Origin: a virus
Lineage: Duplodnaviria > Heunggongvirae > Uroviricota > Caudoviricetes
Strand: one strand, 5' to 3'
IMG/VR virus record: IMGVR_UViG_2648501802_000002
DNA: 64,000 bases
A program made the translations under genes and the position numbers. Within the stretch, counting starts at the first letter, position 1; every line of letters starts with the position of its first letter. The notes beneath the pieces were generated by a model that saw only the letters and a list, made by a program, of their open reading frames with translations, made no database searches and had not been told where the DNA came from. Shown in pieces: positions 1 to 17,789 of this stretch.

Positions 1-951
1 GCCATCAACAATAGTTGTCACAGCCTGCTTGTGCGCTTCTCCTGATAAAGCCTGCATCTGGACAAAATCATTGGCTGCCGCATTAAGCGCCGTCAGAACA
101 TTACGCATATCCGGATCAGGTTCTTCTGCAACCATCCTTACCAGGCGCGCATCCTTATATGCCTTGGCAAAGATCGCGTTTTGTATACGGTCTACAAGTT
201 GCCGCGTTGGTCGCCCATCTTCCGTTACAAGGCCAGCAGCCTGTGTGGCACCAACTTGCGTCATGAATCCGCGAATAAACGCGTCATTACTGCGGCTAAG
301 CAGATCTCCACTTTCTGACGGGTTAAACAACGCCATCATCGCCGGTGTTATGCTGTCGGCATCAACAAAAGCCTTTTCACTGGCTGCCATTTCCTGGAGA
401 TCAGAAATATTTGAGTCCTTGGCAAACTGAACACGGTCAGCCTTCGTTAACCGGCGGCGCACCAGTACCGGAGCCGTCATTGATTCAACCTTTTCAGGCC
501 GTATGCCGAATTCGGTCGCATGTTCAATCAGGTACTCCCGATACCGATCCGCATTACCGTCCTGATAGGCTTTAATGATCCCCATGGTCCGCCCATTACC
601 TGACTCAACGGCATTGTCCTCACCAATTATTGGCGCGCCATGGCTGGATAAACCGGAATCGGTAAGCTGGGCAGGACGCAAATCCTTGGATATCTGGTTG
701 ACCTGAAGAAGGCTGGATGCGCGGGTCCGGTCGCGCGGCTGAAGTTCCTGGGGATAGTCTGGATTAATTTTCCCATCCAGAGTATTGGATACCAAAAGAA
801 CTGAGGCATCGACGATATCAAACGCTGTTTTTACCTCGTCTCCCTTCGCTGTCACCACATACGAAACCCGCCCGTAATCGGGCAGGTTTTTTAGCAGCTC
901 GATCAGCGTTTCTATGCTGGTGGCCATCACCACCTGATCGCTTAAGCTCAT
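1..951 (-). CDS. Partial CDS (N-terminal part; runs off the window start); ParB/Srx-like N-terminal domain protein
   Basis: Manual minus-strand translation from ATG near 949-951 (MSLSDQVVMATSIETL...) stays open to position 1; motifs QPRDRTR and SGNGRT resemble the ParB/sulfiredoxin fold. Absent from the ORF track because there is no stop in the window. Confidence 0.45.
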   Translation of the reverse strand, partial: MSLSDQVVMATSIETLIELLKNLPDYGRVSYVVTAKGDEVKTAFDIVDASVLLVSNTLDGKINPDYPQELQPRDRTRASSLLQVNQISKDLRPAQLTDSGLSSHGAPIIGEDNAVESGNGRTMGIIKAYQDGNADRYREYLIEHATEFGIRPEKVESMTAPVLVRRRLTKADRVQFAKDSNISDLQEMAASEKAFVDADSITPAMMALFNPSESGDLLSRSNDAFIRGFMTQVGATQAAGLVTEDGRPTRQLVDRIQNAIFAKAYKDARLVRMVAEEPDPDMRNVLTALNAAANDFVQMQALSGEAHKQAVTTIVDG

Positions 952-963
952 CCCTGTTACGCC

Positions 964-1329
964 TTATGCTGCCTCTTTAATGTTGGCGGCTATCCATGCC
1001 GCCGTGTGCTGTTTAACCTGGTCCAGATCGATGTATGTGCCAACATATTGACTCAAGTCCTGCAACGTACCGATAAATGCATCGGTGCTCTGATCGACGA
1101 ATTTATCAGCCAGGAAATCAGCAACCAGTTTTGGCACACCATCATGTACCGAAGGTTGTTTTTCCTCGCCACTACCGCCGCCGGACGCGCCGTACCCCAT
1201 CTGTTGCATGATCTGGTCAATTTCATCGCTGATATCCAGCAACTCCATGCCACTCGCGGTAGCCGCTTTGGACATCAGAGCATCCAACTTATCGCTGAGA
1301 TCCATTAACTCAATAGCTGATAGTGTCAT
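964..1329 (-). CDS. Hypothetical small acidic protein (position of ddrA in a P1 dar-like operon)
   Basis: ORF track 121 aa; co-directional with and overlapping the stop of the upstream 639-aa gene. Confidence 0.5.
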   Translation of the reverse strand: MTLSAIELMDLSDKLDALMSKAATASGMELLDISDEIDQIMQQMGYGASGGGSGEEKQPSVHDGVPKLVADFLADKFVDQSTDAFIGTLQDLSQYVGTYIDLDQVKQHTAAWIAANIKEAA

Positions 1330-3245
1330 GCCGCTACCCCCGCTTTCTGGATTGCTACCAGCAGATCAGCCAGGTGGCGAGCTGCGCCGTTAACCAGCTC
1401 TTCGTTTTCCTCAAAACGTCCGGCAGCCTGAAGGGCTGCAATCGCTTCCCGGACATTGCCCCGGGCGTTACGGATCTCCGCCATGTCAGTGCTTTGTATA
1501 TCCATCACGTTATTGAGATATTCAATGGCTTTATTAGCCTCTGCATCTGCTTCGCTAACCGTTTCATCAGGCTGTGCCGGGGCCGGTTCTGGCTGAGTAA
1601 TCTCACCGACTTCGGCCTGCAATGCATTGATCATGCTCTGCACCATTTTCTCGGTGCCAGCGCCCCCAGGAAACGCAATATTGGGGAAAGTTTTTTGAAA
1701 CTGAGTTTTCAGCATTACGCGGAACTCGTCTGGTGAGCTGGTGGCCAGCTCCAGAGCTTTTTGTGCATATTTGCCAAACGGACCATTAGTAAGTGTCTTC
1801 GCCAGGAAGTCGAAAGAATCCTCGCGAGGCAATAACTTCAGGTCGTACTCACTCATTTGCTGATCAGAAAGCGGGGTATCGTAAGTAGCAATGCCGTAGC
1901 GTGCATATTCATAATACGGGTCACCTTCATCAGGGCGCGGCAGAATTGCTTTGTTACCTTCAGGTATTGCGCCAGGGGCCGCCGGACGCATTTGCAGGGC
2001 ATATCGATATGCACCTACAGAGACTTCTGGTTCAGGCGAAGAGCTACCGGTATCCTCCGCTGGTTCAGGCTCGACGTTTTCCGGTTTATGTTCTTCTGGT
2101 TGGACCAGGTATTCCGATACATTACCCGCTTTATAGGCTTTAAACAGCTTGCCGATCGCATCTGCCATGTCCACACCCTGTATGGATTTAGCCTTGATCA
2201 TGTATACGCTGCCATCCGGATCGGTTAACTGGATATACCCTTCGCCGCCCCCAATGAATTGCTTCATTGATGCACCATTACTGAGCGTCACTTCCCCGTC
2301 CATATGCATACGATTTTTGATACTGGCAAGGCGATCCGTCAGCGCGCGAGAGTGCCCACCAGTCATCCCCGCTGGAGCAATGGTATCGCGCCCACCAGTG
2401 CGATTGAGCTGATCAATCTCCGTCTGCAAACGCTCATTCTCTTCATAAAGAGAATCCGCTTCCGATGCAACAGCGTTAATTTTCTGCTCCAGATCTGCCT
2501 TCTGCCCTTCTACCGCTGCCACCTGATCCGCGAGGTCGCTCATGGCATCCTCTTTCTGGTCACTGTCAGCCTGTAGTTGGGTTATTTCATCAACAAGGGC
2601 TTTTTTCTTCTTCTGCGCACGCTGGAATTTTGCCGAGTTTTTCTCTGCAAGGTTGGCAAGTTTCATGGTGACCTGCGCCAGCGTCATATCACGTCCACTC
2701 ATCGGAGCAACGGTGTGAGTAACGTCTTTTTTATTCAGTAAGAACTGGAAAGCAACCAGCGTATCGCTATTGGTGATCCGGTTTTCCGCTGTCGGGCTAT
2801 GAAACAGAATGCTGATAGTCTGACCATCACTGAGCGGAATAATGGCTGGCAGGACTGGCAGCCCGTTAACGTTACGTGCCCGGCCAATTTCAGCGCCGCC
2901 GATCGCGCGCGCGCCGCTCTGGGCCACATCCCCCGTTTTATCACTCCCCGCAGAGATTCCGGTACCATTCAGCTTCTGGTTCAATGCCCGGACAAATGCC
3001 TGCATGGTCCGGTGTAACTGCAAACGAGTAGAACTAATCGCCTCCAATAAATCCGTAGCACACCAGTGGATCGGCGTGTCATAGAAGAACGTTGCCTCGA
3101 TTTCCTCCAGGGTGTTGGATTCCGTCATCAGATAGCGGTCCTGACCAGCCATTAATGCGCGATATTCATCATCAGTCACCGGCGGGGGAAGCACGTCAAG
3201 CCCCGGCTTAATCGTCACCCCTTTATTGATATTGAACTGTTCCAT
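1326..3245 (-). CDS. Large coiled-coil protein, candidate DarA-like antirestriction / internal virion protein
   Basis: ORF track 639 aa; central coiled-coil (LQADSDQKEDAMSDLADQVAAVEGQKADLEQK); shares a domain with the upstream 203-aa protein (DGQxIxI...KNSAKFQ). The size and the paralogous upstream fragment fit P1 hdf-darA from memory; not verified by alignment. Confidence 0.5.
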   Translation of the reverse strand: MEQFNINKGVTIKPGLDVLPPPVTDDEYRALMAGQDRYLMTESNTLEEIEATFFYDTPIHWCATDLLEAISSTRLQLHRTMQAFVRALNQKLNGTGISAGSDKTGDVAQSGARAIGGAEIGRARNVNGLPVLPAIIPLSDGQTISILFHSPTAENRITNSDTLVAFQFLLNKKDVTHTVAPMSGRDMTLAQVTMKLANLAEKNSAKFQRAQKKKKALVDEITQLQADSDQKEDAMSDLADQVAAVEGQKADLEQKINAVASEADSLYEENERLQTEIDQLNRTGGRDTIAPAGMTGGHSRALTDRLASIKNRMHMDGEVTLSNGASMKQFIGGGEGYIQLTDPDGSVYMIKAKSIQGVDMADAIGKLFKAYKAGNVSEYLVQPEEHKPENVEPEPAEDTGSSSPEPEVSVGAYRYALQMRPAAPGAIPEGNKAILPRPDEGDPYYEYARYGIATYDTPLSDQQMSEYDLKLLPREDSFDFLAKTLTNGPFGKYAQKALELATSSPDEFRVMLKTQFQKTFPNIAFPGGAGTEKMVQSMINALQAEVGEITQPEPAPAQPDETVSEADAEANKAIEYLNNVMDIQSTDMAEIRNARGNVREAIAALQAAGRFEENEELVNGAARHLADLLVAIQKAGVAA

Positions 3246-3246
3246 G

Positions 3247-3858
3247 TTAATTTCCTGCTTTCAGTTGCTTAAGACGGCGTTTGAGTTCGCCATTCCGTGC
3301 CTTTTCGTTATTGAGTCGGCCCGTCTCCTTATCCAACTTCGCCCGCAAATCTGTGATCTGCTGTTGATTGAAAGACACCGAATTCTGCGCGGACTTATAA
3401 GCGGCAACCACCTGAGCATTCCGCTGTTTTGCTTCTTGCAGGCGCTGAAAGTTGGATTTAACTGCCGGTTTCTTGTCTACCGGATTGGCAACACGCTTCG
3501 CTTTGGCGATCAGTGATTTCTGGAATTTCGCAGAGTTTTTGCGGGCCGCTTGCCCCATGACGGTACCAAGCGTCTTGATATCTGGCGACTGTGCGTTAGG
3601 AATAGATTTTCCATTCAGTTTCACAGCCGATATATCACCAGTATCGTTTACCTGTATGGCAAGAATTTGTCCGTCGTTAAGAACCAGTTTTGCGGTTTTA
3701 ACTTTAACGCCATCTTTCGTTGTTGCGCGGTTGCTGGAGTCAACCTCAATTACCGTAACACCGGTTTTATTGATCGCCGCGATAAGGGATTTCAGCCCCT
3801 TTTCATTAACCTGGTCAAAATCGACCGTTGCATACTTATTTTTCGTCATCTGACACAT
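3247..3858 (-). CDS. Hdf-like protein (homolog of a fragment of the 639-aa protein)
   Basis: ORF track 203 aa; motif ...LNDGQILAIQVND...ARKNSAKFQ matches ...LSDGQTISILFHS...AEKNSAKFQ in the downstream 639-aa protein. Confidence 0.5.
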   Translation of the reverse strand: MCQMTKNKYATVDFDQVNEKGLKSLIAAINKTGVTVIEVDSSNRATTKDGVKVKTAKLVLNDGQILAIQVNDTGDISAVKLNGKSIPNAQSPDIKTLGTVMGQAARKNSAKFQKSLIAKAKRVANPVDKKPAVKSNFQRLQEAKQRNAQVVAAYKSAQNSVSFNQQQITDLRAKLDKETGRLNNEKARNGELKRRLKQLKAGN

Positions 3859-4279
3859 CCTGTGCGAGATTTATTACGTAACTTCTGCGGATTTGCTGAG
3901 TAACAGGGAAAATCCGATACAACGGGTTAATGAACGAGTCGCCATGCGTAACCATGACGTTGAAATGCCACAGTCGCTCTCCTTTACCCATATATTCAGT
4001 GGGTATGTACAACCATTCACTGTTTTCGCCCTGTTCAGCCGACGTCAGACAACGTTGTTCGCCTTCAATCACTGTCGTCGGCTTCTGAACATCGCGGATC
4101 CAATATCTGACCGTTGCGCCGCGCAAAAACGGGAATTTAGACCGGTATTTGAACGGCACCCGAATGAAACCCGGTTTAATTTCCACATCACCAAGTTCTA
4201 AATGCGTGATGTCCTTGCGTTTTAGCAAATAGCGATCGGCTAAGGCTAACGCAAGAACGCATACACCCCAGCCAATCAT
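3836..4279 (-). CDS. Hypothetical protein (position of P1 lydB-like gene)
   Basis: ORF track 147 aa; overlaps neighbours in operon fashion. Confidence 0.45.
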   Translation of the reverse strand: MIGWGVCVLALALADRYLLKRKDITHLELGDVEIKPGFIRVPFKYRSKFPFLRGATVRYWIRDVQKPTTVIEGEQRCLTSAEQGENSEWLYIPTEYMGKGERLWHFNVMVTHGDSFINPLYRIFPVTQQIRRSYVINLAQDVSDDEK

Positions 4280-4605
4280 TTCCCACCTCCCTTTTTCACC
4301 AAACTTGTAAGAACATTCAGAATGCTATCGATATTCACTCGTTTCATCCCTGAAATCACCTCATGACCGTTATTGCTGGCTATCGTTACCATTAAGTACG
4401 TAATTGATAACTCCCAGCCTTCGTGTTGCCCCAATAGGTACGCCACCGCGCCAGCTGTCACTGCAACAAAGATCTCCGTAACCAATCCCAACAAGTTGCC
4501 AGACTGGCGACCATCTCGGACATCCATCAGGAACGTGCCTATCCCACCAATTACTGAAAGCAGGAGCGCAATAGCAACTGGAGCTAATTCCTGTGTGTCA
4601 AGCAC
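4276..4605 (-). CDS. Small membrane protein, holin-like (P1 LydA-like position)
   Basis: ORF track 109 aa; hydrophobic helices (VAIALLLSVIGGIGTFLM; IFVAVTAGAVAYLLG) and charged C-terminus; first gene of a co-directional operon. Confidence 0.45.
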   Translation of the reverse strand: MLDTQELAPVAIALLLSVIGGIGTFLMDVRDGRQSGNLLGLVTEIFVAVTAGAVAYLLGQHEGWELSITYLMVTIASNNGHEVISGMKRVNIDSILNVLTSLVKKGGGK

Positions 4606-4705
4606 AAGTTCCCTCCTACGTTGTCAGGAGGTAATGGTATGCAAAGTAACTTCTCAACCGGTCATGTTACTTGACATCCTCCACGTCCTTTAGAGCGTGG
4701 AGGAT

Positions 4706-5177
4706 GTGTGCGCCCAGCATGGGCGCGATCTTGGAGGTGAAAGCCCTCCCGCGAGCTGACCACAGCGAGCGAAAGGAAGTGCAACTGCGTGAGGGCGGCT
4801 AGGCGTGGGGAGGAAGCACGGAATGAACCCGTGAGCCGATGAACAAGAATCGGATATGAGGCGCGATGGAGCAAGGCGAGCAGGCACATCACTGCGAAGC
4901 TTTCGTGACAAAGTCGCGTAGATCCGACGGTTGTGCGGGGAAGGATCGCGTTCTTACCTGGGGAGTTCTCGCCTCATGCCTGAAAGGGCAACGTCGTAAG
5001 ACGGAGCGAGAAGTCAGCAGAGGCCGTAGTAGTCAGGACTCCGACGAAGGGCCGAACGAGAAGGAAAGCCAAAAGATATGACTCTTGACAGGACATTGCG
5101 TCAGAAGCCGGGGAAGCCCGGTACGGACCCGCATGCCGGGTGGTGTGGCAGGGGCGCAGCCTTGTGCTCCCCCCTAT
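4706..5177 (+). ncRNA. Candidate ORF-less group II intron-like structured RNA (possibly a decayed remnant)
   Basis: GC-rich segment with no credible ORF. Starts GTGCGCCCAGCATGGG (group II GUGYG 5' consensus, close to Ll.LtrB GUGCGCCCAGAUAGGG from memory) directly 3' of a perfect 11-bp hairpin (CATCCTCCACG-N10-CGTGGAGGATG, 4675-4706). Many GNRA-like loops; ends ...CUCCCCCCUAU (AY 3' end). No RT/IEP ORF, and I could not pick out an unambiguous domain V by eye. Confidence 0.3.
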
Positions 5178-5603
5178 GCCGATCAAGCAGAACATTGTGC
5201 TGGGCCTCTGACGCATCTCCTTGATGGTCTTGGCATCGTGCTTAAGTGGATTGGTGTCGTCTCTGATAGGCTCATGGAGGCAGAATGAAACTCAAAAATC
5301 CGGGACAGCACGCAAAACAGGCTGCACAAAAAGCGCAGGTTGCGTAGGAGTGGAATCCCGCTCCCAAAAAATGGTGCAGAAGTTGCGGCAGTGGTCATCC
5401 GACGCACTGGAAAATAACAAACCCGCCGTGACCAGAATCGGAGGCCTGAGGGAGTGACCGTAAAACCGGATAACCCAGGCAGCAAATACCCGCTGGATGA
5501 GGCATGGTTCCGGCAGATAATACCGAAAACCGCCAGACACACTGGATAATCAGTAGAAATAACCCATTAAAATCATTATAATAATTGGGCACATTATTAT
5601 ATT

Positions 5604-6167
5604 ATGCTGAATAATAGAGACATGAATATTAATGAACTTAAAGACTGTATTCACTATGAAGTAATCGGTAGCGAGCGTCCTTTCTCCTGGCGAAAGGCAA
5701 TTGTTCGCGCAATAAAACATAGAAGAGTTCGTTATTTATTTTGGTGGCGCATAGCCAAATACCTTTTTGATAAAGGCGGATACTGTCGGAAGATTGCGGG
5801 GAAAATGGAACGTTTCATTCTTGATAAATATAGTGTAACAGTCCCTTTAACTGTAAATATAGGGAAAGGCTTTGATATTTCTTATCTCAACGGTGTTGTT
5901 ATCGGTCACAAAGTAACCATTGGTGAAAATTGTTCAATAAAACCAGGGGTAACTATTGGGCTACGTGGTGATTTTAATGATATGGATATTGTTATAGGAC
6001 ATAATGTGACCATTGGTTGTAATGCCACCATTCTTGGTGGCAAAGTGCGTATAGGAAACAATGTCACAATAGGTGCTCATGCATTGGTATTGCATGATAT
6101 TCCTGATGATTCAACATTCATCACTAAATTTCAGTCTGAAGTTATCTGCTCGTCCTCTTGCACATAA
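5604..6167 (+). CDS. Hexapeptide-repeat (left-handed beta-helix) acetyltransferase, WcaF/LacA-like; moron
   Basis: ORF track 187 aa; hexapeptide repeats ([22 protein letters not shown]...[33 protein letters not shown]); AT-rich island; convergent with tfa; TATAAT-like box near 5577. Confidence 0.8.
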
Positions 6168-6748
6168 CCCTGATTCATCAGCTCTGGCCATACGATATCC
6201 GGAGCTGTACTGGTGTCAATTCGACTCACTAATACTCTGTATTTTCTCCAGGAATCCAGTTGTGAATTTTCCTCGGTTGTTGCTATTTCAAGATTAACTG
6301 CATCCTGCAGAATTGCGATGTTATCTGTTGCCTCCTGAATCAACCTTGCCTTTTTCTCTTCCGCTTCCCGTATCCGAAACAGTTTTTCTGCTTCCTCATC
6401 CTTCACCCAGGATACGCCGTCCCACTTCTGATACTCCCCTGCTGGCGACAACCAGGTGACATTCTCTGGTAACGGTCCGAGTTCAGAAATAAACAACGCG
6501 TCCCCCGATGCCACGTCATAGACCGTTTTACCACGATGGTCTTCAACAATAATCCATGATTCATTTTCACTGTTAAAAACTGCCACAAAGCCAGCAGGAA
6601 TTTCCGGTGGGGCGATATCTGTAGAATTAGCTGGTAGCCCTGTATGAGGTGGAATATATGCGTCACCTTCACCAATAAACTCATTAGTTCCGGCGAGCAG
6701 GTTATAAATTTTTACAGTACGTGATTGTTCACTCATTCTGAATGCCAT
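6131..6748 (-). CDS. tfa: Tail fibre assembly protein Tfa
   Basis: ORF track 205 aa; N-terminus [41 protein letters not shown] is near-identical to lambda Tfa as I recall it. Confidence 0.9.
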
Positions 6749-7640
6749 TATGCAAGCCTCACAATATAATTAAATGCGATGTTTTTAACGGTGTTTTCCG
6801 AGTTACCAGCAGCGTTAACGGTGATGGTGTGTCCATGTGAACCAATCGCAACAGAGTGCGTATGAGCGCCAATATCAACTGTATGTGCATGCGCCCCTGC
6901 ACTTGCAGCGGTGCCTGATACTGAGTGGGTGTGTGCACCAGAAGAAGGCACAGTTCCATTCCCCACCACAGTGCCGCTTGATGAGCCATCAAGCCAGTCG
7001 AAATTCATACCGCCACCATCTGGTCTCCTTAATGGAACGGTATGAGTATGTGCGCCAGCACTATTTGCAGTACCAGATACATTGTGGGTATGTGCACCTG
7101 TGTTATTCGTTGATTTAGTACCGTAATCAAACGAAGATGTGGTTTTCGTACCCAAATCCGTATTGGATGCGCTGGCGCTGTGGGTGTGCGATTTAATGCC
7201 ATCCTGTTCCAGAGACAATACGTCCCGACCACTGGCGGGTTTGCCCTTGATTGTCCAGCCACGCATATCCGGGATCACGCCTGACGGATAAGCGGCTGCA
7301 AGTTTCGGGTATGCAGATTTGTCAAAAGTCTGTCCCTGCATCAGGGCGTAACCAGACGGCACAGTATCTGATGGCCACGGATGCGGAACACCAACAGGAA
7401 GGACCTCAATATCCCCGGAACCATCAAACGAAACGTTATTAATTTTACGGGCTGTTTTCAGCTTTGTAGCCGTTGAGGCATTGCCGGACAGCTCACCAGA
7501 AATGCCACCAACAACTGTTAGATCACCAGTTATTGTGCCGCCTGAACTTTCCAGTTTTTTAGCAACATCACTCTTAATAGAGTCGATTTCTTTTTTTCAG
7601 ATTAGTTATATCTGCTGGTATCGTTGTCACTGTTGCCATA
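6748..7640 (-). pseudogene. Side tail fibre C-terminal (receptor-binding) gene interrupted by a +1 frameshift in an A7 tract
   Basis: ATG near 7638-7640 with AAGGA Shine-Dalgarno; reads [16 protein letters not shown] then hits a stop. The long frame (..[23 protein letters not shown]...[15 protein letters not shown]...GAHTHSV...[11 protein letters not shown], lambda Stf-like C-terminus) opens at the homopolymer (plus-strand T7 at about 7594-7600). A6 would give one ORF of about 297 aa. Confidence 0.65.
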
Positions 7641-7812
7641 TTAATTCCTTACGCCCATTCCCGCAGCGGTTGTTCTAATTGAACTTCAAAACCATCAAAC
7701 ATTTGTTGTTTCAAACTGTTGTTTAAAATACGAACATTAACGAAGAAGCCATCATTTTTAATCACTGTTGGTTCTTCGTTCTCGCCGTTTGGTATTTCGG
7801 TATATGTAACAC

Positions 7813-9240
7813 CTACAACATCAAGAAGAATGTTGTTTTGCAGCTCTTCATTATCGTGGTGCCGAGTTCTCTTAAACCAAGGTATTGGATAACAGCAAGG
7901 ACGCTTGTTTTGGACAGAATATCGCGACCGACTGACGTTAAGTCAGTCTGAGAAACAGTGTCTGTACCGGTAAAGTACGGCAGTTTATTTGCGCCTGTAG
8001 CAAGACCAGCAAGCGCGGTTAAAGTTGCATCCAGAGGCTGTTTGCCTGCCAGCGCATTTGTCATTGTTGTCGCAAAGTTCGGGTCATTACCAAGTGCTGC
8101 GGCAAGCTCATTCAGGGTATCAAGAGCTTCTGGTGATGAACCAACCAATGCGGATATGGCAGCTCTTACATAAGCAGTCGTAGCAATCTGCGTATTATTT
8201 GTGCCCTGCGCAGCCGTAGGCGCAGTAGGGACTCCCGTTAATGCAGGGCTTGCCAAAGGCGCTTTGAGGGCTAGGGCATTGTTGATAGTTGTGCTGAAAT
8301 TCGGGTCGTTATTGATCGCAGCAGCTATTTCTTTAAGCGTATCCAGTGTGCCAGGTGCACCGTTGATAAGTGCCGTTATAGCTGACTTAACAAAGGCTGT
8401 ATTTGCGATCTGCGTGCTATTTGTACCTTGCGCTGCCGTCGGCGCGGTTGGCGTTCCTGTCAGACTCGGGCTTTCTATTGGCGCTTTGGTATCAGCAAGA
8501 CCTTTTACAGACTTAACGGCTTTAGGGGTAGCCGCCATTGTTTCGCTGTCGCTGTTAGTTTCGCTACTGAGCTGAACTAATCCCTTTTGCGTTGTGCTTG
8601 CATCCTGTGCCGTATACTTGCTTTTCGCCAGATCGTAGGCTTTTTTAGCTGCCAGCGAACTTGCAGCAACATCACTTCTGCTACTGGTTACAGAGTCTGA
8701 AATATCAATGCCGATCGTGCGGTTAATACGCTCGGATGTATCAATCATCTCCTGGGTAATGGCTGATACGCCAGCAGGGATATTCACCGTACAAACAAGC
8801 AGCTCTCCATCTCCTAACTGATATGAATCGGTATAGGTTCTGGCAACAAATTCAGCCGCATGAATATGTGACGCGGTATTAACCTGATAGGTATCCTCTC
8901 CAAGGAGGTATCTTCCCTTCAGCACAATTGCATATTTCTTGCCTTCACTAAGTGCAAGAGAAATATCCTTACGGTGCCGAATAGTTACCTGGTAGAATTC
9001 ACCAATATCCACTGACGCAGCGCCAGCAGTTTTATCACCATCCACTGAGGTGATTAACAGGTTCATACCACCGCCAGGCTTCGGCAGGAAACCGGCATAA
9101 AACCCAGGATCAACAATTCCCCTGAATTTTCGGTTTAGCGCGGCTGACAGATATGGTTCGTGGTATTGCACATCAGCCACCAGAGCCAGTGACTCGGGCG
9201 ATGGGTAAGTAACTGATGTAACAACTGTAACGTCATTCAT
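7813..9240 (-). CDS. Tail fibre protein, N-terminal/constant part (Stf / P1 S-like)
   Basis: ORF track 7813..9327; start set at internal MNDVTVVTSV. Contains TTQKGLVQLSSETNSDSETMAATPKAVKSV and repeated SP(A/S)LTG(T/V)PTAPTAAQGTN fibre repeats. Ends abruptly after YLGLRELGTT. Confidence 0.8.
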   Translation of the reverse strand: MNDVTVVTSVTYPSPESLALVADVQYHEPYLSAALNRKFRGIVDPGFYAGFLPKPGGGMNLLITSVDGDKTAGAASVDIGEFYQVTIRHRKDISLALSEGKKYAIVLKGRYLLGEDTYQVNTASHIHAAEFVARTYTDSYQLGDGELLVCTVNIPAGVSAITQEMIDTSERINRTIGIDISDSVTSSRSDVAASSLAAKKAYDLAKSKYTAQDASTTQKGLVQLSSETNSDSETMAATPKAVKSVKGLADTKAPIESPSLTGTPTAPTAAQGTNSTQIANTAFVKSAITALINGAPGTLDTLKEIAAAINNDPNFSTTINNALALKAPLASPALTGVPTAPTAAQGTNNTQIATTAYVRAAISALVGSSPEALDTLNELAAALGNDPNFATTMTNALAGKQPLDATLTALAGLATGANKLPYFTGTDTVSQTDLTSVGRDILSKTSVLAVIQYLGLRELGTTIMKSCKTTFFLML

Positions 9241-9251
9241 CAAGCATATCC

Positions 9252-9686
9252 TTATGCTATAGTCGTGTTGATGGCCATAACTGCGGTATATGTTTTTCCC
9301 ACATACAGCGAGTCTTCCTGAACACAAATAATTGCGATGGGCTTATTCTCGTTATCCAGAACAACCAGAGTGTTGAATGGATAGTTTTTCCCTTCCTGCA
9401 ACTGGCTTTGATCAAGGTCCATTCGGACAGTAATTATCCCGCCAGAGTAGGTTGGGACGAGGTTGATGGTGCAAAATTGACTGGTCAGTTCTGCCAACTC
9501 GAAAGTCTTTGGCAGTTCTCCAATGTCATAAGTACCATCTTCATTTTTGGTAACCAGCGAACTGGTGCCGAAAACGGCCTTGCTGATTAAAAATCGAGAG
9601 CCTTTGTTAATGGACGATTCAGCGCGTCGCTGATAGTAATAATCCAACAACTGACTCTTATAGAGATTTGTTGAGACGTCAGACAT
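9252..9686 (-). CDS. Tail/baseplate-associated protein (P1 R-like position)
   Basis: ORF track 144 aa; directly upstream of the tail fibre gene in the same operon. Confidence 0.45.
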   Translation of the reverse strand: MSDVSTNLYKSQLLDYYYQRRAESSINKGSRFLISKAVFGTSSLVTKNEDGTYDIGELPKTFELAELTSQFCTINLVPTYSGGIITVRMDLDQSQLQEGKNYPFNTLVVLDNENKPIAIICVQEDSLYVGKTYTAVMAINTTIA

Positions 9687-9764
9687 GATTTTCCCTAATC
9701 AATGTTGTGAAGCCTCATTGTAAGAGAAGTAACTTGTCACCCCGCCCTGCGGACGGGGTAATTG

Positions 9765-10604
9765 TCAGGCATCGCTATCCAGCAGCAAATCATCTGCGCG
9801 GGAGCGATCAAACGTAGGCGTTGCTTTCACAATAGTGCCGCCCGGCGTTGCAGTGATCGGGGCACTAATCGACGTAACTCCGGCAAGCGAAGTTGTATCC
9901 GAAGTTTCAAACCAGCAGTACGCTTTTTCGGTATCAGAAATCTCGTTCAAAGTGATCATGTCGGCCTGTTCATTTACAACAACCGACAAATAGAGCGTAA
10001 GCCCATCAAACACTATATGCAGTGGCAGTAGAGGCTTTACGAACTGATTAAACTTTCTGAGAATTTCTTCTGTAATTGCGGACTGATCTATCGTGCCAGT
10101 AATACCCATTGTCCTGGCCAGGTCGTTTATGGGAATACTGATCATCCCTCTGGAAGTCAGAAACATCTCGCCGAATGTGCCGCCAGTAGTCTCCAGTGTG
10201 CTTTCTGGTATTAGAACTGTGCCATAGGGATGACGCTCAAGGTCCACCGGTGCATATATCGGATCCCATAAAACAGAAATACCGTTAAATTCGCGGTAAA
10301 TTGTCTGGTTTATAGGACGTTCAGTTCCCTTAAAGTGGATCTCATCAAGCCGCTGTTGTAACAACATCGGAACGGAAGATGAGTTCGAGGTTCTGATAGT
10401 AAAGAACTGGCCAAGTTCATTTGTCCTGGTCTCCAGATCCTCCTTGCTCATGGAGAAAATAGACTTCCGGTTGGTAATTCGCTCCAACCATGGGTCAACA
10501 AAGGTGTCCATCATTGACTGAACCAAATCAGCCAATGATTTATAGAGCAATGACTTTTGCTTAGCTGATGTAAGCCGGTTATTAAACCAGGAACGCTGCA
10601 TCAC
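9765..10604 (-). CDS. Tail/baseplate protein
   Basis: ORF track 279 aa; operon context with overlapping stop/start. Confidence 0.45.
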   Translation of the reverse strand: MMQRSWFNNRLTSAKQKSLLYKSLADLVQSMMDTFVDPWLERITNRKSIFSMSKEDLETRTNELGQFFTIRTSNSSSVPMLLQQRLDEIHFKGTERPINQTIYREFNGISVLWDPIYAPVDLERHPYGTVLIPESTLETTGGTFGEMFLTSRGMISIPINDLARTMGITGTIDQSAITEEILRKFNQFVKPLLPLHIVFDGLTLYLSVVVNEQADMITLNEISDTEKAYCWFETSDTTSLAGVTSISAPITATPGGTIVKATPTFDRSRADDLLLDSDA

Positions 10605-12034
10605 TCCTCCTCATACGAAATATTAAAGGTGGAGCTTTCTGTATCCAGATAAACGAAATCGTAAAAGCCGTTGGACTCATTCCACTCGACAAATTCCAGA
10701 TAAAAGTCGCGGAAATAACCCAGCGTTTCGATAAACGCCCAAACGTCTTTTTTCTTAATCAGGATGTACTTTCCGACGCGGTTCGGATCAAAGAAAGTTG
10801 AGTCGCGCCCAAATTTTGTTTCCAGTGCCGACTTCAGCTCATCGGTCACATTCTCAATGGTCAGGCTTGCCGATATCCGTCCGGTGATGGTTATCTTAAA
10901 TGGTAGTTTTCTGACCTCTTTATAAGAGAATTTCTTGTTCAGTTCATTCGGTACCTTCTTAAAGGCAGTCAGGATCATTTCTTCAAGCTCTGACTGGCTT
11001 TTATTTGGATGCCATCCTGAAATAAATATCTTATTGATATTCTGAACATTATAAGCACCATCTAATTTCTCTTGCTGGCCTTCGCCCCATGCCTTTACCC
11101 AGGACAGCCCCGGGATGTTACGAACCAGAAAATACGTATAGTCCCCGCCCCATACGACCTGATCATCATAGGCAAGGTAATATTGTGCACGGTTACGTGT
11201 GATCTCCGTTGTTTCAGCATCGGTACCTGCGGTTATAGGTGTCGTTGTCTTAACTGAAATCAAATTAGCTAAATCAGCCGCAGAATCGACAGGCGTCAGG
11301 TTTTGGCCAGCAACCAGGGTTATATCGCCGTTGGTGCACCATACCTTAAGCGTAATTGTCGAACCTTCTGGCGGTATTTGCCCAATTAGCCCATCGCCGA
11401 ATCGAACCCCCAACTGCTCGGATGGTTTATAAAACTCAACGTAGACCTGGCTTTTACTACCGGCTAACCGGAACATAGTGCTGGAAGACCACTGCGTGGT
11501 CTTCCCATCGGTTGTCACGAATACTTCCAGCTTATAGCAGACAGCAGTAAGAGCCTTTGATAACACGACTTCCAGAAATTCTTTGGCTGCCGTAACGGTA
11601 TATGTCACCTCCTGGATTTCCAACTGTGCCACTTCTACCGTACCGGTGCCGTCAACCAACCTGCATACATCCATAGTCATGTAAGGGTACTGGTCGTCAG
11701 ATATTAAAGGCATGTTTTTGGGGATTACCGCTGGGGCATCTTCACTTGTGGCGGTGATCTCAATCATCCCCGATGACGGTGTTGGCTTGGTACCAACATA
11801 ACTGTTCGTTTCTGCCGCAGCCAGGATAGAGGAACGCCGCGTCGCGGTCGATATAAAGCCTTCAGCCAGCGCCGCATCGGCATACTGAAAGCACCTGTAG
11901 ACAATCTGGGTAATAAACAATGTCAGCATCGAGACAAATTGAGAGCCGACAAACTTCGACCAGAATGAATCTTTCTCGACAAGCTCTTCAAACTCTGCAC
12001 GAATACTGTCTTTAGTCGGTGTTGTTTTACTCAT
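10601..12034 (-). CDS. Baseplate protein (J/gp47-like; P1 BplA-like position)
   Basis: ORF track 477 aa; size and position within a myovirus-type baseplate cluster. Confidence 0.45.
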   Translation of the reverse strand: MSKTTPTKDSIRAEFEELVEKDSFWSKFVGSQFVSMLTLFITQIVYRCFQYADAALAEGFISTATRRSSILAAAETNSYVGTKPTPSSGMIEITATSEDAPAVIPKNMPLISDDQYPYMTMDVCRLVDGTGTVEVAQLEIQEVTYTVTAAKEFLEVVLSKALTAVCYKLEVFVTTDGKTTQWSSSTMFRLAGSKSQVYVEFYKPSEQLGVRFGDGLIGQIPPEGSTITLKVWCTNGDITLVAGQNLTPVDSAADLANLISVKTTTPITAGTDAETTEITRNRAQYYLAYDDQVVWGGDYTYFLVRNIPGLSWVKAWGEGQQEKLDGAYNVQNINKIFISGWHPNKSQSELEEMILTAFKKVPNELNKKFSYKEVRKLPFKITITGRISASLTIENVTDELKSALETKFGRDSTFFDPNRVGKYILIKKKDVWAFIETLGYFRDFYLEFVEWNESNGFYDFVYLDTESSTFNISYEEE

Positions 12035-12390
12035 AGCACCACGTCCTGTGTGATAGTTATATCCCTGATACGAATGGATATTTTCAACTTATCAAAAGCA
12101 TCTCCCTCGGCTACTGACAAGCCAGAAATCGGTATGTCAGGTAAATCTACCGTCAGTTTTTGCAACAGCATTGCCTCAACCGCAATTTGAACATGCGACA
12201 AGTTGGTCGGTTCGTGTTTAAACTGCGGTAAAACATTGCCCCATGACGGATCTCCGTATACCTCACCCTGATAAGTGTTTAGCCACTCATATAAACGAGC
12301 GCCCCAGGCCTCCTCCTGGGACTCATACGTTTTTACGCCGGATAACTCCAGCGTCAGCAAAGGATCAATTTCGTTATTGTTGGCCATCAA
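12031..12390 (-). CDS. Small baseplate assembly protein (gp25/W-like position)
   Basis: ORF track 119 aa; translationally coupled to its neighbours. Confidence 0.4.
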   Translation of the reverse strand: MMANNNEIDPLLTLELSGVKTYESQEEAWGARLYEWLNTYQGEVYGDPSWGNVLPQFKHEPTNLSHVQIAVEAMLLQKLTVDLPDIPISGLSVAEGDAFDKLKISIRIRDITITQDVVL

Positions 12391-15300
12391 TCAACTCTCG
12401 CGTAGTCATTCATCAACGGATCATCAATTGACAGTGGCACCGTGCGCATAACGCCCGGTTGAGGCGTGCTGACCTTTACGACAGTTCCCTGGCCTTTCGC
12501 CGAGTCTTTAGTGTGCTCTTCAATCCTGGCAAGCAATGAGGTCATCTGCGCAAACAGCCGCTTCGTTTCACCATCAAGTGAAACGGTATTATCAGCCAAC
12601 TGCATTGTCGGCTTGGCACCAGAGCCGCCAAGGTCACTAATAACCTGTCCGTCTATCTGCATACGACCGGTTGGTTGCTGCAAATCGTTGGCGGCAGTCG
12701 TCACCTGGGACGTGGAGGCTGGTTGAGGAGAGTTATTTGAGCGCATTCCCCGGGCATTAATGAGTTTGTCATACAGCCCATCAATCCCCATTTGTGCACC
12801 GAGTTGGTCAAAGTAACTTGAGTTGTTTGCTACCGGACGTGCCTCTTCAACTGGCATAGGTGTATCAACATACACATTGCCAGCAGCCGTTGCGGTTCCC
12901 CTTCCTCGTGCACGTTCTTCGAGGGTTCCCTGAACGACTTCCCGACGCATCCCCCGACCATTCATGAATTTGTTGACCAGATCGTTAACGCCAACAGCAT
13001 TACCGATTTTGTCTACCAAACCGCCTTTCTCAAACGGGCTATCACCAGGGGTAAACGCCAGACCAGTAGACTGATCGATAACGGCGTTATCAGGCAGTGG
13101 TCCCCTCACTCCATATTGCGCCCCACCCTGTGCTCCTGCTCCAGGTGTATAGATTTCACCACCTAAATAGCGAGCACGATGAGTATTGACCTTGATCGCG
13201 TACTCACGGTTTTCTTTCGATAAGTCACCTGTGCCTTTTTTCCACTTATTGATAGTGCCAAACCCAGCATTATATGCAGTGATGGCCTCGTTTAAGTCTC
13301 CATTGGCTTGCTTCAGATACTTGCTCATGAGAAGAGCCGCAGCTTCTGCCGATTTCACAGGATCAAATGCATCCTGTTCCGATATCCCTGTCTCTTTACG
13401 AGCAATACTCGTGAACTGGAACATCCCGAGTGCGCCACCACTTAACTTTCCATCTGGTGATCTTGTAAGCGGAGACTTTGCGTTAGGATCCCCTCCTGAT
13501 TCAGTTGCCGCAATCGAGTAAAGAGTGCCTTCAGGAAGGCCATATTTATTCTCTAGTTCAGCAAAATACGGAGCCAGCTTATCCAGATTTGCCTTACCTT
13601 CAGCGCCAAGGCTTCCGACTTTTACATCTAAGTTGCCATTGTTGTAGGTATCCGCAGCTTTCTGAATGTCATTCCTAGTGCCAGTAGTATTAAGCGACGA
13701 TGATGATGAGCTATTTTGACCAATAGCATTATCAATTTTCTGCAACGCTCGATTGCCCGTTTCTACGGCATTTGCATTGATAATCTGATTGGCAGTTTCT
13801 TTAACTGTTTTATTGCTATCTTTCGCCGTCTCTAGGGATGCATTTACAACACGAGTGACAATATTAGCCTTTTTAGGGGTATATTCAGTCTTAGGAGCAT
13901 TGTCCTCCTGACTTTCTTTAGCTGGTGTTTTTAATTCAGGTGTAACCTCTTTCGCATCCGCTTTGTTGACTAGCTTTGATGCAACCCAGGCCACAGGGGT
14001 GCTCTGAACAGCGGCATCGGCAACCTTACCAGGAAGCTCTTTTGCGGCATTCCATAGATTACTACCAGCCTCTTTAATGTATTTTCCCGGGTTCTTAATG
14101 AAATCAATTGCACTATCAATTGCATCACTGAAAACCTTTTTCAGGTTATCGACAGTAAAGAAGTCTTTGATGGCGTCTAATTTTTCGTTCAGACTCTTGG
14201 TTGTGTCACTGAACCAGGCTGAAATAGCATCGCCAATCTTGGCTGTGTAATCGTTGAATGTTGTGGATATGGTGTCACCAAGGTTAGAAATATATGTTTC
14301 TAAATTGGTAATCCCACTATCAATGGCCTGGGCAATACTTTCCGTCGAAAATGATTGCAACATATTGCCGATATCCTCAAATCCAAGTGATTTGAGAACG
14401 CCACCAATGGCATTGCTAATACCAGATACCAGTCCTCCCATATCGAGAACGTTAGCCAGTGTATAAGCCGCTTTTTGCTGAAAAGATGGATCTTCCCCAT
14501 CCTTAAGCCCAAAGGTCCGACGTTGTGCTTCTGTATCATTCCAACCGGTTACCGCATCATAGATACCTCCAGCCACCGTGCCGACTAGCGGAATTGCGCG
14601 TAAAGCCCCCTTTGCAAAAGCCTTAACACCTAGTTTCTCCAATCCCTTAGTTGCAAGTTTTCCGGCACCGCGAGTAGCCAATTCGCCAGCTTCTTTGGCA
14701 GCAGCTTTTTTCCCACCAAAGCCCAATAAGCTTGCAACTTTTTTTATACCTAAAGCGCCTAGTGCCATCGAGCCAACTTTCTTTAGTGCCCCACGGCAAA
14801 AAATAAGGGAAGCAATACCACCGGCCCCCTTCCCTAACAGGCTAAATAATTTGGACAGCAAGCCGCCCTTCTTTTTCCCGGTGTTTTTGGCTATCTGATC
14901 AAGGGCGCTGAGAATCTTGTCATTGCCCTCTTTAATTTCGCTGGTCTGATCCTGAAGTTCCTGAACCGTCCGTTTTTGGGTGTTAACCTGAACGACATCG
15001 GCACTACTTTGCGATTTACGCCTAAAAAAACCTTTTCTACGGCTGTTATCGTCATTGCCACGAATCACATCGGCAATTGACTTTCTGGCACCATTAAGCG
15101 AACCGCCAACTTCTTTTGATATTCCGCCAAGCTCCTTTCCTGCTGCCCACAATGGACCAGCAACGGCATAACCTAAAGCATCGACGGCACGAGTCTCTGA
15201 AGGGTTACCTATGCCTTCAGCTACTTTTGACAGTTTTTTTAATAAACCCGATTCAGCATTTAGACGCTCATCATCCTCTTTGCGCCTAGCTTTTTCAGCA

Positions 15301-15815
15301 CGTTCAGCACGGGCATCTTCCGCTGCGGCCTTACTCCCTGACTTCCCAATAAAACGACCACGCGCATCGCGTTGGTTTTGGCTTTTTTGCGCACCGCCTT
15401 TTTGACCGAACATTTCGCGAGCGTGTTCGGCTGCTTCGGTCCGTTGTGCCTTTACATCCTCTGGTATAGCCTTCCTGCGTCGTTTTTTACCCTTTGGTGT
15501 GGTTGATTTGGCCCGCTGTTCCTGTTGAGCAACATCTTCCTGAACTACACGAGAAACGTCCCCTAAGTTAAGCCGTTTCATTGCCTCAACAATAGGGTCC
15601 ACTGATGGCGCATTGGCCACAAAGTCTGGCCGTGAATTTTCGATTGTGCGATTTAATGCCGACACACTGCGAGAGACAGGATCAACAGTTGCAACGCGCC
15701 CCCCTTTCAAATCTTCAACAGCTTCCCGGATACCTGCAAGCTCTTCCAGCTCTTTTGCGCTGGCGGTTTCAACTGTCCTTATAACATCGTCAATGTTGGC
15801 GTTTTTTCGTTCCAT
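12387..15815 (-). CDS. Large tail/injection protein with lytic transglycosylase (SLT) domain; P1 Sit-like
   Basis: ORF track 1142 aa; SLT motif YSIAATESGGDPNAKS...GALGMFQFTS...AYNAGFG; Gly/Ala/Lys-rich extended regions. Size matches P1 Sit (about 1140 aa) from memory. Confidence 0.7.
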   Translation of the reverse strand: MERKNANIDDVIRTVETASAKELEELAGIREAVEDLKGGRVATVDPVSRSVSALNRTIENSRPDFVANAPSVDPIVEAMKRLNLGDVSRVVQEDVAQQEQRAKSTTPKGKKRRRKAIPEDVKAQRTEAAEHAREMFGQKGGAQKSQNQRDARGRFIGKSGSKAAAEDARAERAEKARRKEDDERLNAESGLLKKLSKVAEGIGNPSETRAVDALGYAVAGPLWAAGKELGGISKEVGGSLNGARKSIADVIRGNDDNSRRKGFFRRKSQSSADVVQVNTQKRTVQELQDQTSEIKEGNDKILSALDQIAKNTGKKKGGLLSKLFSLLGKGAGGIASLIFCRGALKKVGSMALGALGIKKVASLLGFGGKKAAAKEAGELATRGAGKLATKGLEKLGVKAFAKGALRAIPLVGTVAGGIYDAVTGWNDTEAQRRTFGLKDGEDPSFQQKAAYTLANVLDMGGLVSGISNAIGGVLKSLGFEDIGNMLQSFSTESIAQAIDSGITNLETYISNLGDTISTTFNDYTAKIGDAISAWFSDTTKSLNEKLDAIKDFFTVDNLKKVFSDAIDSAIDFIKNPGKYIKEAGSNLWNAAKELPGKVADAAVQSTPVAWVASKLVNKADAKEVTPELKTPAKESQEDNAPKTEYTPKKANIVTRVVNASLETAKDSNKTVKETANQIINANAVETGNRALQKIDNAIGQNSSSSSSLNTTGTRNDIQKAADTYNNGNLDVKVGSLGAEGKANLDKLAPYFAELENKYGLPEGTLYSIAATESGGDPNAKSPLTRSPDGKLSGGALGMFQFTSIARKETGISEQDAFDPVKSAEAAALLMSKYLKQANGDLNEAITAYNAGFGTINKWKKGTGDLSKENREYAIKVNTHRARYLGGEIYTPGAGAQGGAQYGVRGPLPDNAVIDQSTGLAFTPGDSPFEKGGLVDKIGNAVGVNDLVNKFMNGRGMRREVVQGTLEERARGRGTATAAGNVYVDTPMPVEEARPVANNSSYFDQLGAQMGIDGLYDKLINARGMRSNNSPQPASTSQVTTAANDLQQPTGRMQIDGQVISDLGGSGAKPTMQLADNTVSLDGETKRLFAQMTSLLARIEEHTKDSAKGQGTVVKVSTPQPGVMRTVPLSIDDPLMNDYARVD

Positions 15816-15896
15816 GATCTTATCGCCTACCGTTTCGGTTTAAGTTTTTCTTCCAGTTTCTCCAACAGGAAAAACGCATAGGATTCAGTAAGCCTT

Positions 15897-16637
15897 TCAG
15901 CGTCCTGAATCGGTATACCCCCATACAAAACCAGGTTGGACACTAAGGTCTGATAGCTTTTCAATCCCCACCTGTGGAATGAAGTCGGTAGCCCGAAAGG
16001 GCACCCACAGACGGGTATATGCACCCTCTGTGGACTCCTTTTTATCCTGATTTGGGCATTTATGCGGCGGGAGACGAAGACGCATTTCACCTTTATCGAT
16101 GTAGCACGGCAAACCATGTTCGAGCTTTTCATGAGCCAGTCGGATGTGTGCCGCCAGCTTCATAAATTCAGTATCAATGGCCATCCGTTTAATCGTTTCA
16201 TAACGACGCTCAGCCTGATCTTCACGAGTACCGCTAACATCGTTATAAAGCTCACACTGATAAGCGAATTCCCAAAAACGCAAATCAACGATCGCTTCTT
16301 TGAATTCCGCGTCGTCTTCAGGTGGCAATGCTGCACGGCGCATCTCCAGCATTTCCATTGCCCAACCATCAAGCGGCACGATACGCCATTGATAAGGCAC
16401 TCCCTCTACAGACACCTCAATATCGTCAATGAACGGTTCCGCTTCCAGGACCTGGATATCTTCAGCCAGGGCATTCATATCGCAATCGTAATAATGCTCT
16501 TTACCGCAATGTTTACAGGTGTAGGTGAATGTCTCGACCGGTGTTTCACGGGAGCCGGTAAATATCCACCATAACGCGGTAATCCGGTCCTGCGCCGTCC
16601 ATGTCAGGGGATCATGTTTCGCGGGTTCAGCCAGCAA
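15897..16637 (-). CDS. Hypothetical protein with Cys-rich zinc-ribbon-like motif
   Basis: ORF track 246 aa (TYTCKHCGKEHYYDCD); first gene of the non-lambdoid block, just past the truncated stf. Confidence 0.5.
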   Translation of the reverse strand: MLAEPAKHDPLTWTAQDRITALWWIFTGSRETPVETFTYTCKHCGKEHYYDCDMNALAEDIQVLEAEPFIDDIEVSVEGVPYQWRIVPLDGWAMEMLEMRRAALPPEDDAEFKEAIVDLRFWEFAYQCELYNDVSGTREDQAERRYETIKRMAIDTEFMKLAAHIRLAHEKLEHGLPCYIDKGEMRLRLPPHKCPNQDKKESTEGAYTRLWVPFRATDFIPQVGIEKLSDLSVQPGFVWGYTDSGR

Positions 16638-16642
16638 GGCTT

Positions 16643-17123
16643 TTAAATACGCGCTGCCGCCTGTGCGCTGTTAGCTGCATTCGTTTCTGAGGTTTTCGCC
16701 GCGTTCTTTCGATGATGCCGCTGCAGTTTCGGATTTCTTTGCCGCCGCTGCGCTCTGAGAGGCGGCTTCAGCGTTGCGTGCCGCTTCTTCCACCATTTCC
16801 TCAAAACGACGCAATGCCTCCGGCATGACATCATCTTCCGTCATGGCACCGAGAAAATCATTCAGCGTACCTGGTCTGGAACCTTCATAGACGGTAATGG
16901 TCCCGGCATGTGAAGGCGGAAAACCTTCAACCAGCAGGGTGACGCTGTACTGACCATACTCAACATCCATGCTGTAACGCCCGGCTTCATCCGGATTTTC
17001 AGAGGCCACCGTGTTCACCAGTACCGTGGTGCTGTTACGCTTTGCCTTCAGTTGAATAGTGCAGTTCTGTATTGGTTTTCCCGCACCATCTTTCAGCACA
17101 CCTGAGATTTTTACTGCTGCCAT
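16643..17123 (-). pseudogene. stf: Truncated/frameshifted 5' fragment of lambda-type side tail fibre gene stf
   Basis: MAAVKISGVLKDGAGKPIQNCTIQLKAKRNSTTVLVNTV...GRYSMDVEYGQYSV matches the lambda Stf N-terminus as I recall it. The frame ends after about 150 aa, and an overlapping frame (16643..16834) carries further Stf-like AAKTSETNAA text; no fibre shaft or C-terminus follows. Confidence 0.6.
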
Positions 17124-17186
17124 ATCCACTCCACAAAAAAGCCGCCTGAACCGGCGGGCTGTCATAACACTGTGTTACCTGGCTAA

Positions 17187-17782: not shown

Positions 17783-17789
17783 CGCATAA

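Follow-up and report, generated by a model that had tools for sequence, protein, structure and literature searches.

The tail fibre operon in the window (the whole stretch of viral DNA analysed here, 64,000 nucleotides long) is very probably a defective, decaying copy of a known non-invertible P1-like fibre operon that has suffered two private lesions, and its A-run is not a regulatory element. Every element of the locus aligns to a defined gene of close relatives, and therefore the arrangement is not a chance pattern. In the proposed course of events an illegitimate deletion of about 1.6 kb would have joined gene S out of frame to codon 24 of a 92-aa gene, at a point 21 bp beyond the cix crossover; S would thereby have lost its C-terminal 505 residues and the small gene its start. 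The second lesion, one extra A (A6 to A7), throws the distal fibre gene out of frame after codon 16. As sequenced, the operon would be unable to make a complete fibre, and the distal fibre probably docks on the C-terminal half of S that is missing. The preliminary description had presented the locus as fragmented; this is indeed what the sequence shows, but part of it is the normal architecture, in which S, the 92-aa protein and the 296-aa distal fibre have separate genes. The features are collected in Table 1.

Table 1. Coordinates of the fibre operon, its lesions and homopolymer indels elsewhere in the window
Feature	Position	Strand	Remarks
Convergent hexapeptide-repeat acetyltransferase	5604..6167	+	PF00132
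Tfa, tail fibre assembly protein	6131..6748	-	intact, 205 aa; PF02413, E = 2.3e-39
Distal receptor-binding fibre gene	6748..7639	-	frameshifted after codon 16 as sequenced; PF07484, PF03335
A7 run (plus-strand T7)	7591..7597	-	A6 or A5T at the same position in relatives
Remnant of 92-aa phrog_1361 gene	7649..7858	-	codons 24-92 and stop; lacks start codon and RBS
Truncated gene S	7813..9240	-	475 codons; 94.6 % nucleotide identity to P1 Sc over 1,544 nt; PF03406 fibre repeats
Deletion joint	7858..7859	n/a	reads ...CTCGGCAC / CACGATAATG...; adjoins an imperfect GGCAC repeat
cix-type crossover site	7867..7892	-	26 bp, end of Sc; P1-equivalent crossover point 7879/7880
Gene R, tail-fibre structural/assembly protein	9252..9686	-	intact, 144 aa; colinear with P1 R
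P1 late promoter LPs-like sequence	9717..9735	-	upstream of R; 18/19 bases match the annotated P1 LPs core
Indel C5/C4	22354		splits C40 peptidase gene (vs FDAARGOS_1279)
Indel T10/T9	28007		alters tail-tube C-terminus (vs FDAARGOS_1279)
Indel C4/C5	45237		inside DUF1133 gene (vs FDAARGOS_1279)

The P1-like element and its parent operon

Judged by its gene content, the segment 1-16651 is very probably part of a P1-like (Punavirus) phage-plasmid; Sc, R, gene 16, bplA, pmgA, sit, lydA/B, hdf and darA lie in the same order as in P1, with 94-98 % identity. All the other P1-like genes of the window are intact, which shows that the element is not generally decayed, and it is somewhat unexpected that both lesions lie within one operon. 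The LPs-like sequence would be the promoter of this operon. In relatives PF26881 is assigned to R, and the acetyltransferase is annotated as a serine acetyltransferase; together with the Tfa gene it forms a cassette that, in a P1-like sub-lineage, stands in place of U/U'/Sv'/cin. A related acetyltransferase/Tfa replacement has been reported in JL22 (PMC9603915).

The intact parent operon, a type already documented in P1-like phage-plasmids, was found in at least 10 P1-like contigs with an identical Tfa (JAAQMK010000018.1 and CAJCQB010000016.1, for example), the exact Tfa protein occurring in 45 index blocks of the collection, of which 23 were read. It consists of R, S (966 or 974 aa), the 92-aa phrog_1361 protein, the 296-aa distal fibre, Tfa and the acetyltransferase. 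Compared with these parents the window resolves into two aligned blocks, colinear and 98.6-99.6 % identical, which meet at 7858/7859. The gene order of the L015-L024 type (R, S, 92-aa gene, 296-aa fibre, Tfa, acetyltransferase, lydA) is kept; the window departs from that type in having only 461 native codons of S, 69 of the 92 codons of the small gene, and no open 296-codon fibre frame. A local mosaic, in which an NZ_CP123334-type distal fibre 5' end had been joined to an elppa9-type S C-terminus in place of 1.4 kb, was also considered and is ruled out by the ten contigs that carry the arrangement intact.

A tblastn search of the 64-kb window with P1 Cin revealed no gene for a Cin/Pin/Gin-type invertase (best E = 1.1), nor does the window hold a remnant of cin DNA, a second, inverted crossover site (at up to 3 mismatches) or an alternative, oppositely oriented fibre end with its chaperone; at the locus the opposite strand holds only the acetyltransferase. 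The absence of an invertase had been remarked upon before as unusual for such a locus. The absence stands, but relatives of the sub-lineage also lack cin, a trait common to the group (PMC9603915, PMC6906374). Furthermore, lydC-cin-Sv'-U'-U-S is already known in the literature as a variable region, and P1-like elements with degenerate switches have been described.

The deletion joint and the start-less frame

In the S reading frame, native residues 1-461 run as far as ...YLGLRELGT; 14 residues read out of frame (TIMKSCKTTFFLML) and a stop come next. Comparison with the S gene of L020 shows that 505 codons have been lost from the C-terminal end of the 966-aa parent, so that the abrupt end of the constant-part fibre gene, noticed at the outset, is borne out, with native S stopping just beyond cix. 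The deletion, which also takes 23 codons from the start of the 92-aa gene, measures 1,587 bp against L016 and L020 and 1,611 bp against L015 and L018. With up to 3 mismatches allowed, the window contains this one cix site and no other, where chance expectation is 0, and the site maps onto the annotated cixR of P1, whose crossover is at 36480/36481.

Since the left breakpoint lies near this site, it might be supposed that a Cin/Pin-type invertase made the deletion between cix and a secondary cix-like site in direct orientation. The breakpoint is, however, 21 bp to the Sv side of the crossover point and outside the 26-bp site, the right end carries no cix-like sequence and shares only GGCAC, and the window does not itself supply the enzyme. 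The offset and the absence of a cix-like far end led to this candidate being rejected, and its chance of being correct is very slight.

The deletion joint is unmatched in 5,426 complete E. coli genomes, PLSDB, GTDB representative genomes and IMG/VR, and exact-protein look-ups returned no record for the truncated S or for the 204-aa internal ORF. A second unusual joint, at 16651/16652, connects the P1-like piece to a truncated Rac-like stf gene and likewise has no match in these four collections. Because both joints are unmatched in every other sequence searched, it is possible that a chimeric assembly lies behind the two of them.

The third frame of the locus, described beforehand as open without an obvious start, extends for 73 codons across 7649-7870, and none of its possible starts would yield 40 aa or more. 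It had been left unassigned, with the suggestion that it might align to a fibre or Tfa C-terminus. It is neither of these: the frame contains the last 69 codons of the 92-aa phrog_1361 gene, and the remnant, once translated, agrees at every position with residues 24-92 of the L016/L020 protein. The full-length 92-aa protein matches phrog_1361 with E = 1.8e-35; this family has no assigned function and 14/14 homologs are named "hypothetical". The protein has no Pfam family match and no PDB sequence match. Its AlphaFold model is good (pLDDT 85.7), but the only matches to it in BFVD (E about 1e-3) are phage proteins that are themselves uncharacterised, while against the PDB nothing meaningful was found (best E 0.04, TM about 0.4, ribosomal protein S10-like folds). 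From the position of its gene one might guess that the protein is a fibre joint or chaperone.

The A-run in the distal fibre gene

The distal fibre gene has the proper start and Shine-Dalgarno sequence that had been ascribed to it, with the ATG now placed at 7637-7639 and AAGGA at 7646-7650 on the minus strand. As sequenced, 16 native codons are followed by RNRLY and a stop, giving 21 codons in all. The A7 tract and the need for a +1 shift were likewise recognised correctly, but the run had been placed at 7594-7600 and is in fact three nucleotides away (Table 1). Skipping one base in the tract reopens the frame to the stop at 6748-6750, that is 296 codons, and the 296-aa product of the A6 version combines a collar domain with a needle tip like that of T4 gp37. 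With one A removed the protein is identical to those of L016, L018 and L020 at 296/296 positions, and therefore the frameshift is either very recent or not real.

An A6 tract and a 296-aa ORF are present in 10/10 parent contigs. A six-base tract was also found in 19/19 complete E. coli plasmids with the segment, an 85-nt query spanning 84 nt each time, and in 6/6 metagenome or viral contigs. Thus in 35/35 relatives examined the tract is six bases, A6 or (in several) A5T, and its length is constant. The preliminary description had envisaged a tract invariant at A7 across relatives, with no intact homolog; the opposite is seen, intact A6 homologs being abundant, which leaves a private mutation or an error as the options. 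Decay and sequencing error had rightly been listed as equal alternatives.

It had also been proposed that variation in the length of the homopolymer could act as a phase switch. The tract does lie near the 5' end of a host-range gene, and a change of a single base toggles the frame. A contingency tract that reversibly turns the receptor-binding fibre on and off is nevertheless very unlikely, as seven bases are short for such a tract, the 35 relatives show no length polymorphism and several have an interrupted run. Furthermore, the proximal fibre gene is separately truncated, so that restoration of A6 would give no working fibre and the "on" state would still lack a shaft.

The constancy of the tract lends no more support to programmed frameshifting than to phase variation. 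In principle the shift could be bypassed by +1 ribosomal slippage of tRNA-Lys at AAA-AGA, or by transcriptional slippage, to give some full-length fibre. A +1 slip at CUG AAA AAA/A GAA would restore the exact wild-type peptide; A-runs and hungry AGA codons promote slippage, and AGA is a rare Arg codon. The site is, however, unconserved, the homologs all being single in-frame ORFs with six bases, and A7 is far below the usual run length for productive slippage by RNA polymerase, which makes bypass just as improbable as a phase switch. Similarly slim is the likelihood that a real, heritable A7 serves as a low-frequency reversible or leaky gate (through A7/A6 slippage or +1 decoding at AAA-AGA) with the shaft provided in trans from another fibre locus of the same cell; that shaft would have to come, for example, from a Rac-like or P2-like cassette with the same small-gene/distal-fibre junction module.

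For the extra A, a real recent mutation and a homopolymer error of the consensus are about equally likely. That it arose in sequencing or polishing, the true gene being A6 and intact whether or not the deletion is real, has slightly less than an even chance. A comparison of 41.7 kb of the window with the FDAARGOS_1279 chromosome (99.95-99.98 % identity) shows only 11 substitutions and yet 3 single-base homopolymer indels (Table 1), of which at least 2 disrupt genes that are intact in the reference, and ten further small indels are clustered in 16707-18141. Given these homopolymer indels elsewhere in the assembly, A7 may not exist in the cell. At such a frequency the 16.6-kb P1-like part should contain about one error, and a single indel does separate it from the closest relatives; that part has just six long homopolymers, among them the tract, and the repaired protein is, as noted above, 100 % identical to those of relatives. 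Relative to 7 of the 10 parent contigs the extra A is the sole indel over 7.86 kb. Against an error, the P1-like part is otherwise free of indels across 15 kb compared with L018 and L020. Moreover, genuine slippage from A6 to A7 is also common in genes freed from selection, as this one would be after the S deletion.

Related fibre operons and implications

The operon shares with the P1 R-S-U operon, with its Cin/cix invertible C segment, the late promoter, R, the constant part of S with cix ending Sc, and the neighbouring genes on both flanks (16, bplA and sit; lydA/B and darA). Unlike P1, the window has one cix, no cin and no inverted Sv'/U', and its variable part is a different, split cassette. 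In comparison with the non-invertible P1-like operon, Tfa is identical, the small-gene remnant is identical and the distal fibre is identical minus one A, the differences being the missing 1,587 or 1,611 bp and A7 in place of A6. Residues 78-296 of the repaired fibre match the T4 gp37 tip (PDB 2XGF; E = 1.8e-82), including the His-x-His repeats, although here the tip is a separate 296-aa gene with a lambda/Mu-type Tfa chaperone (PF02413) rather than the end of the 1,026-aa gp37.

Split cassettes with a 92-93-aa gene are also found in invertible P1-like plasmids (NZ_CP123334), 48-kb P2-like phage-plasmids (NZ_CP070136) and a Rac-like prophage (NZ_CP069957), all in the order proximal fibre, small phrog_1361 gene, distal fibre, Tfa. 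In the first two types 97-99 % identity covers the small gene and the initial ~220 nt of the distal-fibre gene, whereas the Rac-like prophage is alike only in its gene order and in a small protein of 47 % identity. All three differ from the operon described here in their distal tips, and some keep a recombinase and an inverted alternative fibre.

The source assembly contains homopolymer indels and unique joints, and caution is called for before its pseudogenes are interpreted. The start-less frame can now be annotated as a phrog_1361 remnant. What looked like a frameshift switch in a host-range gene comes down to either a private lesion or an error of sequencing and carries little biological weight. 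Since the P1-like sub-lineage to which the operon belongs is normally split in its fibre and free of invertase, neither the split fibre nor the lack of Cin is an anomaly.

The P1-like fibre operon and its intact relatives

Window positions 1-16651 are colinear with phage P1 at 94-98 % nucleotide identity, in the order ddrB', ddrA, darA, hdf, lydB, lydA, fibre locus, R, gene 16, bplA, pmgA, sit and truncated pmgB. The tail-fibre locus carries the constant part (Sc) of gene S and, at its boundary with the variable part (Sv), the cix crossover site, where the annotated P1 crossover 36480/36481 corresponds to 7879/7880. The preliminary description of the locus as fragmented is borne out by the reading frames, save that its A-run is displaced by 3 nt from the true position. 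The distal fibre frame has a proper start and runs for 16 residues to the A-run, stopping after 21 codons; with one base skipped there, it stays open as far as the stop at 6748-6750, for 296 codons in total. The S frame has 475 codons and ends in 14 unrelated residues after YLGLRELGT, while a third frame is open across 7649-7870 without a usable start.

Features of the window and differences from the FDAARGOS_1279 chromosome
Feature	Position	Strand	Remarks
Group II intron fragment, ORF-less	4789-5052	plus	in 4606-5603 gap; Rfam RF02001 95.5 bits, RF01998 46.8 bits
A7 run in distal fibre gene	7591-7597	minus	T7 on plus strand
Distal fibre gene start	AAGGA 7646-7650, ATG 7637-7639	minus	
Constant part (Sc) of P1 gene S	7813-9240	minus	94.6 % over 1,544 nt; PF03406 repeats
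cix site at Sc/Sv boundary, 26 bp	7867-7892		sole site of its kind in 64 kb
C5/C4 vs FDAARGOS_1279	22354		splits C40 peptidase (gpK-like) gene
T10/T9 vs FDAARGOS_1279	28007		
STnc100 sRNA match	43857-44043	minus	86.6 bits; in prophage
C4/C5 vs FDAARGOS_1279	45237		changes N-terminus of DUF1133 gene
RalA antitoxin sRNA	62266-62444	minus	212 bits; adjoins ralR

No full-length match to the locus was found in complete-genome collections, where the only relatives have either a single long S gene (1,181 or 1,339 aa) or an invertible split locus (NZ_CP123334). Parents were retrieved by exact-protein look-up with the window Tfa (6131-6748), which returned at least ten P1-like contigs of ~59-100 kb (for example JAAQMK010000018.1 and CAJCQB010000016.1), all with the same arrangement: R, S (966 or 974 aa), a 92-aa protein, a 296-aa fibre protein, identical Tfa, a convergent hexapeptide acetyltransferase, lydA, lydB, hdf and darA. 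Against each of the ten parents the window aligns in two blocks abutting at 7859|7858, the downstream one (7858-1, 7.86 kb) at 98.6-99.2 % identity.

A collar domain (PF07484) is present in the repaired distal fibre, whose residues 78-296 match the receptor-binding tip of T4 gp37 (PDB 2XGF, E = 1.8e-82); the gene after it encodes a lambda/Mu-type fibre assembly chaperone (PF02413). Since the same cassette is carried by P2-like phage-plasmids and a Rac-like prophage, this gene order suggests that S would form the proximal shaft and the 296-aa protein the distal, receptor-binding segment. Short distal-fibre genes like this one seem to be annotated too rarely, because the homologous gene of plasmid pPSS-10_3 (NZ_AP027688.1, 2532-3422) is called in RefSeq only a partial pseudogene "missing N-terminus", despite a 296-codon frame open from its ATG, and in several other records the start of such a gene is unannotated.

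A deletion in S and an extra base in the distal fibre gene

Between the two blocks 1,587 bp are missing relative to parents L016 and L020, and 1,611 bp relative to L015 and L018. The joint reads ...CTCGGCAC|CACGATAATG..., with GGCAC at both parental ends; it is an illegitimate joint near a short imperfect repeat. The final 505 codons of S and the opening 23 codons of the 92-aa gene are lost; S stops 14 codons past the joint because the frames across it do not match. An origin of the deletion through the invertase Cin is excluded, since the breakpoint lies 21 bp from the crossover point. The frame previously left unassigned corresponds to codons 24-92 of the 92-aa gene, and its translation agrees exactly with the L016/L020 protein. 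Over its whole length the complete protein matches phrog_1361 (E = 1.8e-35), a family with no assigned function; it has no Pfam family or PDB match, its homologs are only "hypothetical", and its confident model (pLDDT 85.7) resembles uncharacterised phage proteins only.

In all ten parents the run is A6 and the 296-codon gene is open, and the extra A is the sole indel of the downstream block in seven of them; with one A removed, the window protein is identical (296/296) to those of L016, L018 and L020. A six-base tract (A6 or A5T) is also present in 19/19 complete E. coli plasmids with the segment, where an 85-nt query always covers 84 nt, and in 6/6 metagenome and viral contigs retrieved by pattern search. 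A contingency tract would be expected to vary in length among relatives. The phase switch considered earlier is therefore rejected: six bases are found in 35/35 relatives with no length variation, the tract is short and in some relatives interrupted (A5T), and the ON state would still lack a shaft since S is truncated separately. Programmed frameshifting would be expected to be conserved, and in every homolog the gene is one ORF without a change of frame. Trace read-through is conceivable, since slipping by +1 at AAA-AGA would yield the wild-type peptide; nothing suggests selection for it.

From 16652 on, a Rac-like lambdoid prophage occupies the window, with 99.6-99.98 % identity to the FDAARGOS_1279 chromosome; over 41.7 kb the two differ by 11 substitutions and three single-base homopolymer indels, at least two of which disrupt genes intact in that reference. 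Ten further small indels, mostly of homopolymer length, cluster within 1.5 kb (16707-18141; reference, an otherwise 99.6 % identical genome) and throw the stf N-terminus, lom and the 3' end of J out of frame. The following 4 kb has none. The cluster resembles a stretch of low coverage or one left unpolished. Homopolymer-length noise in the assembly thus amounts to roughly one per 14 kb, which predicts about one error for the P1-like part; exactly one indel is observed there. The extra A could thus be such an error; about equally, it could be a real mutation, the distal gene having been free to decay after the S deletion.

The absent invertase and the rearranged element

As first described, no Cin-like protein is encoded within the 64-kb window. 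cin is also missing from relatives of its sub-lineage, whose acetyltransferase-lydA interval holds instead the ORF-less group II intron fragment, at the place of lydC and cin in P1. Conserved in the related P1-like plasmids, whose records carry no annotation there, this fragment yielded neither a domain V/VI match nor an intron-encoded protein. The literature counts the lydC-cin-Sv'-U'-U-S stretch among the hypervariable regions that P1-like phage-plasmids possess; the acetyltransferase/Tfa replacement has been described in JL22 (PMC9603915), as have P1-like elements whose cin and C segments are degenerate (PMC6906374).

Within the prophage, an IS3-family element of ~1.3 kb present in FDAARGOS_1279 is missing at ~43783-43787. 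A low-GC island (0.35-0.38) at 46718-50217, whose counterpart in the near-identical reference holds ATP-binding protein, O-methyltransferase and DNA cytosine methyltransferase genes, might serve in defence or modification as a module.

The P1-like segment stops within pmgB and is fused at 16651/16652, with 1-2 bp of microhomology, to the truncated N-terminal stf gene of the prophage. Neither 5,426 complete E. coli genomes nor the GTDB representatives contain this joint, which reflects either the capture of a P1-like plasmid by the chromosome or a chimeric assembly. Whichever origin holds, the fibre locus is part of a rearranged element. It is a copy, degenerate or in part mis-sequenced, of a P1-like fibre operon already known.
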